From the IMG/VR virus record IMGVR_UViG_2547132272_000001, positions 1 to 5,926 of that record: a DNA stretch of 5,926 bases. One strand, 5' to 3'. This DNA is from a virus (taxonomy: Monodnaviria; Loebvirae; Hofneiviricota; Faserviricetes; Tubulavirales; Inoviridae). A program made the translations under genes and the position numbers. Under the pieces are notes generated by a model. That model saw nothing but the letters and a program-made list of their open reading frames with translations. It did not search any database and was not told where the DNA came from. This document shows positions 1,547-1,768 of the stretch, in pieces. The stretch's first letter is position 1; every line of letters starts with the position of its first letter.

Positions 1547-1768
1547 ATGAAATCTAAATTATTGTTACCTGTTTTGCTTCTTTCTTCTTCTGCTGTTTTT
1601 GCTGAGTCTCCGTCGCCTTCTACCTCAGTTGACTTGAGTCAGTTAACTAACAGCGTTAATTTCCAGGGGGTTATTACCGCTATTATGGCTGTGGCAGCTT
1701 CTCTCGTTGCTTTATATGCTGCTTATGCTGGGGTTCGTTGGGTTTTACGTATGGTCAAATCATCTTGA
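1547..1768 (+). CDS. gVIII: Major coat protein pVIII precursor (73 aa): predicted signal peptide of 19 aa (MKSKLLLPVLLLSSSAVFA, cleaved before ESPSP) and a mature protein of about 54 aa with a central hydrophobic helix and a basic C-terminus
   Basis: Size, position before gIII, strong SD (AGGGAG at 1536-1541, 5-nt spacer), AxA-type cleavage site (V-F-A), hydrophobic core ITAIMAVAASLVALYAAYAG and C-terminal R/K residues all match the Ff pVIII architecture (M13 pVIII is also 73 aa). Followed directly by a hairpin terminator, as in Ff. Confidence 0.8.
   Translation: MKSKLLLPVLLLSSSAVFAESPSPSTSVDLSQLTNSVNFQGVITAIMAVAASLVALYAAYAGVRWVLRMVKSS

Follow-up and report, generated by a model that had tools for sequence, protein, structure and literature searches.

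Roux et al. list 51 distinct families of inovirus major coat proteins (PMC6813254). The literature gives a range of two to four basic residues at the C-terminus of these proteins, three or four being typical of inoviruses with circular genomes (PMC12207478). At the other end of the protein, the first six residues are disordered both in the coat of IKe, whose surface is described as 'largely neutral' (PMC6431161), and in that of MDAphi (PMC12207478). The protein sites of the Ff phages against which antibodies are raised are the first ~12 residues of pVIII and the N-domains of pIII; the pVIII N-terminus, the main target of antibodies on the lattice, accepts 5-8 foreign residues on every copy (PMC4523942).

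We analysed a stretch of viral DNA of 5,926 bases, hereafter the window, in which all listed genes lie on the + strand and follow the gene order of Ff-type filamentous phages: gII, gV, orf76, coat, gIII-like, gVI-like (DUF2523), pI/Zot and secretin (Table 1). The subject of this study, ORF 1547-1768, sits in the structural module, which runs from the ssDNA-binding gene through the coat gene to the adsorption gene; a pI/Zot ATPase is encoded in the same genome. An earlier note on this DNA had quoted the ORF and its translation, and both are exactly as given there: 73 amino acids, MKSKLLLPVLLLSSSAVFA followed by ESPSPSTSVDLSQLTNSVNFQ...GVRWVLRMVKSS. We are confident that its product is the major coat protein of a temperate phage of Enterobacteriaceae, a member of the Inoviridae that integrates by the Xer/dif route; the abundance of this protein in the virion, and its mature N-terminus, we infer.

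Table 1. Genes and sequence features of the window, in order of position.
Feature	Position	Strand	Remarks
gII replication gene, 5'-truncated	85-1014	+	Pfam G2P_X_C
gV, ssDNA-binding	1028-1300	+	Phage_DNA_bind, E 1.3e-23
orf76, 76 aa	1307..1537	+	phrog_3679 (unknown function), E 5.5e-22; at the place of pVII/pIX and a candidate minor virion protein
Shine-Dalgarno-like AGGGAG	1536..1541	+	good ribosome-binding site, ending 5 nt before the coat ATG and sharing bases with the stop codon of orf76; read from the sequence
Predicted signal peptide MKSKLLLPVLLLSSSAVFA	1547..1603	+	n-region KSK, hydrophobic core, V-F-A at -3..-1; -3/-1 rule
Variable tip ESPSPSTSV, mature residues 1-9	1604..1630	+	Ser/Pro-rich, predicted non-helical, substitution hot spot
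Conserved motif DLSQLTNSVNF	1631..1663	+	helix start; D29, L33, T34, F39 invariant in close relatives (alignments)
Hydrophobic helix GVITAIMAVAASLVALYAAYAGV	1667..1735	+	putative roles: membrane span before assembly, subunit packing in the virion
Basic C-terminal tail GVRWVLRMVKSS	1730..1765	+	probably DNA-facing; R45, W46, R49, K52 (mature numbering)
G+C-rich stem-loop AGGGAGGGU-GAAA-GCCCUCCUU	1779..1800	+	9-bp stem, then a U-rich stretch; just 3' of the coat stop
29-aa hydrophobic ORF MISLYDLWCVVAFLWGLLCAWAVIQGFRG	1806..1895	+	between coat and gIII; overlaps the gIII start in another frame
gIII-like (adsorption)	about 1859-3319	+	phrog_3942
gVI-like	3316-3636	+	DUF2523
Zot/pI ATPase	3640-4710	+	
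Secretin (pIV)	4676-5926	+	

The identification as major coat protein, the pVIII equivalent that the earlier note had recognised, is well supported: a profile match, the position of the gene, matches to solved coats and the hairpin that follows the gene all agree with it. Residues 8-72 match positions 12-79 of the 80 positions of phrog_2186, 'virion structural protein' (E 2.7e-25, 89.2 bits). The match to Pfam family PF05356, Phage_Coat_B, scores 19.8 bits (E 8.4e-4), below the gathering threshold of 23.5 bits; the same family is matched at E<0.01 by 16 of the 18 close relatives, and relatives P0016, P0024, P0025, P0029 and P0030 have a precomputed PF05356 assignment. At NCBI, a sequence identical to this one carries the name 'MULTISPECIES: major capsid protein [Escherichia]': the gene is already correctly auto-annotated in public databases, while the phage itself is uncharacterised.

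At E<=1e-3, an exhaustive profile search yielded 282 cluster representatives, almost all with lengths of 65-95 amino acids. When a profile of 135 relatives is searched against 177,635 PDB sequences, the top four matches include the coats of MDAphi (9QG9, recognised as such through PMC12207478), Pf3 (1IFP) and Xf (2IFO). Taken singly, the matches to solved coats fall short of significance, with E values between 0.07 and 3 (0.073 for MDAphi); the three of them, each weak alone, are telling when taken together. Pf1 is not among the PDB matches of this profile at E<=10, and hhalign aligns the profile end to end with the Pf1 precursor over 51 columns (E 7.7e-4, probability 25%). For this comparison and the one with fd, the mature reference sequences were checked against the PDB, the signal-peptide portions of both precursors being provisional. 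With fd pVIII, the hhalign alignment is confined to 9 columns of the signal peptide (probability 3%), the mature part being without detectable similarity; no Ff-type coat family appears among the Pfam matches at E<=1, nor any fd or IKe chain among the PDB matches. A phmmer search of PDB sequences with the single protein gave no match at E<=10, NCBIfam no meaningful match, and Foldseek no match, as expected for a single helix. By these comparisons, the coat belongs to a large Pf1/Pf3/Xf-like family, and not to the Ff pVIII family.

The predicted mature protein, cut after Ala19, has 54 amino acids and falls within the one-helix, 30-90 amino acid definition of an inovirus coat (Roux et al. 2019, PMC6813254); it has the layout of an acidic or polar N-part, a hydrophobic middle and a basic C-terminus (2-4 K/R). 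The Kyte-Doolittle maximum, 2.57, is reached at mature residues 23-37, in a single uncharged span that covers mature residues 11-44. In an AF2 model based on the family alignment, a short helix covers residues 31-36, and residues 39-72 form a second one that is predicted with confidence (pLDDT 93-95). The stretch ahead of them, residues 17-30 with the tip, is modelled as coil at low confidence; the pLDDT of the tip is about 47-55. The conserved motif has the family-wide form D[LFY][ST]xLT..[IV][DN]F, found in 140+ representatives, and hhalign aligns it with D4-T-S-A-V-E-S-A-I of Pf1. In the tail, G62, V63, R64, W65, R68 and V70 are invariant in the alignment of close relatives (A1).

How unusual is the charge pattern of this coat? 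The conserved Asp and the AxA-type cleavage site were located heuristically in 141 representatives of the family. The median number of N-terminal acidic residues is 2, and the window coat has 2, E1 and D10 of the predicted mature protein; the count of about three in the earlier note is corrected to two. The C-terminal tail has 2 basic residues in 68 proteins, 3 in 66 and 4 in 6; the window coat has the three already reported, R45, R49 and K52, equal to the median. Tips range from 1 to 15 residues, with a median of 6 and a length of 9 in the window, and their pooled composition is A 19%, T 15%, G 15%, P 12% and S 9%. The first nine mature residues of the window coat, rightly described as Pro/Ser-rich, comprise 4 Ser, 2 Pro and 1 Thr; a Ser/Thr/Pro content of 7/9 lies in the top ~4% of the family.

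Small, polar, proline-rich tips are thus the family norm, and the idea of an unusual Ser/Pro-rich tip keeps this much, that the window tip is at the upper end. The wider label of an unusual N-terminus and charge stands only relative to Ff, since 2 acidic and 3 basic residues are the medians of the coat's own family. The label arose because the comparison was made with Ff pVIII, and not with the Pf1/Pf3/Xf-like family; for a mature protein that has no detectable similarity to it, Ff pVIII is the wrong comparator. A surface charge different from that of Ff, as the earlier note expected, is borne out by estimates of the outside charge per subunit: about -1 here, -1 for Pf3, -2 for Pf1 and -3 for fd. 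The difference is unsurprising, with Pf3 also at about -1. The coat is an ordinary member of a known family, and only its Ser/Pro-rich, fast-evolving tip is mildly noteworthy.

One further use of the charges was dropped. With two basic residues each, Pf1 and Pf3 are nevertheless reported to have different nucleotide/subunit ratios. Pf3 is also a documented exception to the link between the number of basic residues and genome arrangement (PMC12207478). The count of basic residues does not fix the ratio, and we therefore do not derive a number of nucleotides per subunit from it.

We now turn to the phage. An element of ~7.4 kb, present in E. coli drafts and in a metagenome, is 99.9% identical to positions 28-5926 of the window. 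It adjoins hipBA and often occurs as two tandem copies of 7,425 bp. In locus L002 (7395-7425 and 14830-14857) and in loci L003-L008, hipBA and the exact E. coli dif (GGTGCGCATAATGTATATTATGTTAAAT) enclose the prophage; its right end abuts this dif, and its left end a dif-like hybrid. With these two flanking sites, the element is a Xer-dependent integrative inovirus, very probably integrated at dif in E. coli, Salmonella and Citrobacter. The whole phage is absent from 5,426 complete E. coli genomes, none of which holds more than 26% of it, and from plasmids and 50,697 phage records. In the latter, tblastn and megablast find only Dulem virus 52 (coat 34% identical, E 0.3; 165 bp of secretin DNA), and the isolated phages among these records include no close relative. 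Identity with the E. coli dif prophage CUS-1/YpfPhi was considered and rejected: those phages are described with the genetic organization of CTXphi, and a secretin is unmentioned.

The first ~30 bases of the window (1-30, with a junction near 28-34) are non-phage: with 100% identity, they correspond to the right end of an insertion sequence of the IS3 family, which is found at scattered E. coli sites. Phage sequence begins about 130 nt into gII, whose intact form has 371 amino acids. The gII gene of the source genome is thus disrupted by the insertion sequence, so that this prophage copy is probably defective and may no longer produce virions. At the other end of the window, the secretin could start at 4676, for a length of 416 amino acids and an overlap of 35 nt with the end of Zot/pI, or about 12 codons downstream, for a length of 404; gene callers differ between loci.

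Between the window and loci L014, L015 and L017, DNA identity over positions 1859-3636 is ~69.6% in gIII and ~82% in gVI, and 95-99% in the other genes. Such low identity amid highly similar genes indicates that the adsorption and terminal-cap module (gIII/gVI) has been swapped, and one of the breakpoints falls within the coat gene or close to it.

The coat ORF itself can be taken as real, and not as a chance one, because at least 49 contigs encode a protein identical to its product, and because codons 29-73 have 0 non-synonymous against up to 9 synonymous changes. These codons form a 45-residue core that never changes (pN = 0 at pS up to 0.28) and is under strict purifying selection. Among close alleles from E. 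coli, Salmonella, Citrobacter and metagenomes, amino-acid changes are found only in the hydrophobic region of the signal peptide or in mature residues 2-9, and the tip reads ESPSPSTSV, EVSSPSTSV, EIPSSSTPI or ETSSSSTPI. In the signal-peptide codons there is a TCT repeat (1580-1594, CTT TCT TCT TCT GCT), at which a database variant, P0009, has one additional Ser, consistent with replication slippage.

Fisher's test of tip versus core gives P=0.005-0.008. Seven variants differ from the exact protein by a single residue, and in 5 of them the change lies in residues 20-28 (binomial P=4.8e-4). At the DNA level, the 27 nucleotides of the tip hold 4-13x more differences than the flanking phage DNA, with P from 0.011 to 1.8e-6 in comparisons that are non-independent. 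There is a second, independent allele group, with coat proteins 63-69% identical. Loci L020 and L021 are 99.6% identical over 4.8 kb, and their tips differ by 3 non-synonymous and 0 synonymous changes where the flanks predict 0.1 (P=1.9e-4; 28x): in this comparison, and on small counts, the rate exceeds what a simple relaxation of constraint would give.

A non-adaptive origin of these changes, by neutral drift in an unconstrained disordered segment or through a mutational or recombinational hot spot, has in our judgement slightly better than an even chance. The AF2 prediction of a disordered tip is consistent with it, as are the free variation of tip length and sequence across the family, the near equality of pN (0.27) and pS (0.25) in the tips of the window and Citrobacter, and the recombination mosaic that adjoins the coat gene (gIII at about 70% identity). 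The excess between L020 and L021 argues the other way, together with a similar tip excess in the first allele group; these rates are above the local neutral rate, but the counts are few and the comparisons non-independent. The alternative is adaptive surface variation: whatever recognises the exterior of the filament would maintain diversity in both the tip and the swapped gIII/gVI module. We consider this rather unlikely. The recognisers may be gut antibodies, a host surface-exclusion or defence factor, or filament-filament or filament-mucus interactions. By analogy, the tolerance of Ff pVIII to display and its targeting by antibodies would fit both the tolerance of the tip to change and a possible selective pressure. 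Less likely still is that Ser/Thr/Pro-rich tips exposed to the periplasm are post-translationally modified in some hosts.

The tip begins at the predicted signal-peptide cleavage site. Cleavage between Ala19 and Glu20, after AVFA, had been proposed in the earlier note; this predicted cut is well supported by homology, through conservation in the family and the alignment with Pf1, and fits the -3/-1 rule. It is quite improbable that the protein is cut elsewhere, for example after Ala16 (S-S-A/V), which would give a hydrophobic start, VFAESPSPS...: S-S-A, read from the sequence, likewise fits the -3/-1 rule, but the AxA-like site kept across the family, x-[FVSA]-A, directly precedes the variable tip in about 140 representatives, and the experimentally known site of Pf1, ...PAFA/G, aligns with AVFA/E in hhalign (the Pf1 signal-peptide part being provisional). 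Moreover, variation begins right after E20, which itself varies only to D.

Downstream of the coat gene, the stem-loop has a dG of -17.2 kcal/mol and a z of -2.56. In the second phage group its position is kept, and the stem differs yet remains complementary (GGGGAG/CTCCCC followed by a T-run), a covarying pair; in Dulem virus 52, inspection by eye shows a comparable succession after the coat gene: a G-rich stretch, a C-rich stretch and a T-run. This conservation of position, complementary stem and T-run in related phages supports the reading as a terminator: the stem-loop is a probable intrinsic terminator or attenuator of the coat gene. The stem-loop that the earlier note called a terminator is present and covaries in relatives, even though a scan for consensus promoters and terminators did not call the hairpin.

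Two small ORFs flank the coat gene. In Ff, the genes of the minor proteins pVII and pIX precede the coat gene; here orf76 takes their place, and it does so in all related loci. Its product has an acidic N-half of 45 residues, a hydrophobic C-half and the tail RLVKNA, with no signal peptide and no Pfam match. The DNA of orf76 is 100% identical between the window and the Citrobacter copy, and that of the adjacent coat gene 92.8%. On the other side, the unannotated 29-aa ORF begins in the invariant TTATGATT, just past the coat-gene hairpin. It is intact in all related phages, with lengths of 27-29 amino acids and indels in multiples of 3, and the distant Dulem virus 52 has a 24-aa equivalent with the same WGLLCA[WY]xVI motif. 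It is a candidate pVII/pIX-like minor virion protein overlooked by gene callers.

That ORF 1547-1768 encodes some other small membrane or minor virion protein, the case the earlier note had named as refuting its reading, with the true coat being orf76 or the 29-aa ORF, is very improbable: orf76 does have a coat-like layout (acidic N-part, hydrophobic span, basic tail and, as in Pf3, no signal peptide) and no assigned function, and the Pfam score of the coat ORF is below threshold, but only ORF 1547-1768 matches coat families and solved inovirus coats, 29 amino acids is shorter than any known major coat, and the counterparts upstream of the Ff coat gene are minor proteins.

With ORF 1547-1768 as the major coat gene, established inovirus biology suggests the following course. 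The 73-aa precursor would enter the inner membrane by means of its 19-residue signal peptide, and leader peptidase would cut after Ala19. The 54-aa mature coat would then have its N-terminus in the periplasm, residues ~22-44 across the membrane, and its basic tail and W46 in the cytoplasm. At the export machine formed by pI (Zot-type ATPase) and pIV (secretin), the coat would displace the gV protein from the ssDNA; the tail would contact the DNA, R45, R49 and K52 neutralising phosphates, and W46 being part of the invariant G-V-R-W motif, common to Pf3. The invariant hydrophobic helix, rich in small residues, would pack against adjacent subunits, and the D10-L-S-Q-L-T motif would start the outward-facing helix. 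Before this helix, residues 1-9 (ESPSPSTSV) would project as a flexible, hydrophilic and nearly uncharged Ser/Pro fringe. Free of packing constraints, the tip could evolve fast while the other 45 residues stay frozen.

For basic understanding, the finding is of little weight: the charge pattern fits known non-Ff inoviruses. It does illustrate that coat proteins encoded within Ff-like gene orders should not be measured against Ff: in this phage, replication and export genes of the Ff type go together with a coat of the Pf1/Pf3 type. The tip can be seen as a natural counterpart of the engineered 'landscape' display site of pVIII, a segment of 1-15 residues in which almost any small or polar sequence is tolerated, and it could thus inform the design of display on scaffolds other than Ff. 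Beside a swapped adsorption module, the tip shows a local surplus of amino-acid changes, which hints, in a way open to test, that the surface of the filament is under selection in gut bacteria.

Among known systems, Ff pVIII (fd/M13/f1) has the same role, and its gene is placed alike: gV and the small minor-coat genes come before it, gIII after it, and a hairpin follows it. The protein shares the signal-peptide and leader-peptidase route, and the acidic-hydrophobic-basic layout. The two differ in charge: fd pVIII has 5 acidic residues and a four-lysine tail, for about -3 outside versus about -1 in the window coat. Integration by Xer-mediated recombination is shared with CTXphi, although the window phage has its genes ordered as in Ff and a secretin of its own.

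The CoaB protein of Pf1/Pf4 (PF05356; PDB 1IFM, 1PFI) has several features in common with the window coat: a cleaved signal peptide ending in ...FA, a helix that starts at a D-x-S-x-[LV] motif, a long hydrophobic helix rich in small residues, and then a G...[KR] C-terminal tail. However, only 3 residues (GVI) precede the conserved Asp in Pf1, against 9 here, and Pf1 has 4 acidic residues and 2 basic tail residues, against 2 and 3. The genome context also differs, that of the window phage being Ff-like, with gII, gV and a phage-encoded secretin. The Pf3 coat (PDB 1IFP) shares with the window coat a G-[IV]-R-W-[IV] motif at the DNA-facing end (G-I-R-W-I-K in Pf3), two acidic residues and a net outside charge of about -1; unlike the window coat, it has no signal peptide, is 44 amino acids long and has two basic residues. 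The match between the two is non-significant alone (E 0.36-0.58).

Finally, the capsid protein of MDAphi, from Neisseria meningitidis (PDB 9QG9; PMC12207478), is the best PDB match of the family profile (E 0.073), the sequence match being restricted to the C-terminal half. Like the window coat, it has three basic C-terminal residues, and its flexible N-terminal segment, which precedes the helix, determines the surface properties of the filament (PMC12207478). The tips themselves are opposite in character: that of MDAphi is hydrophobic (F3, AAAI) and promotes bundling, whereas the tip of the window coat is hydrophilic and Ser/Pro-rich.
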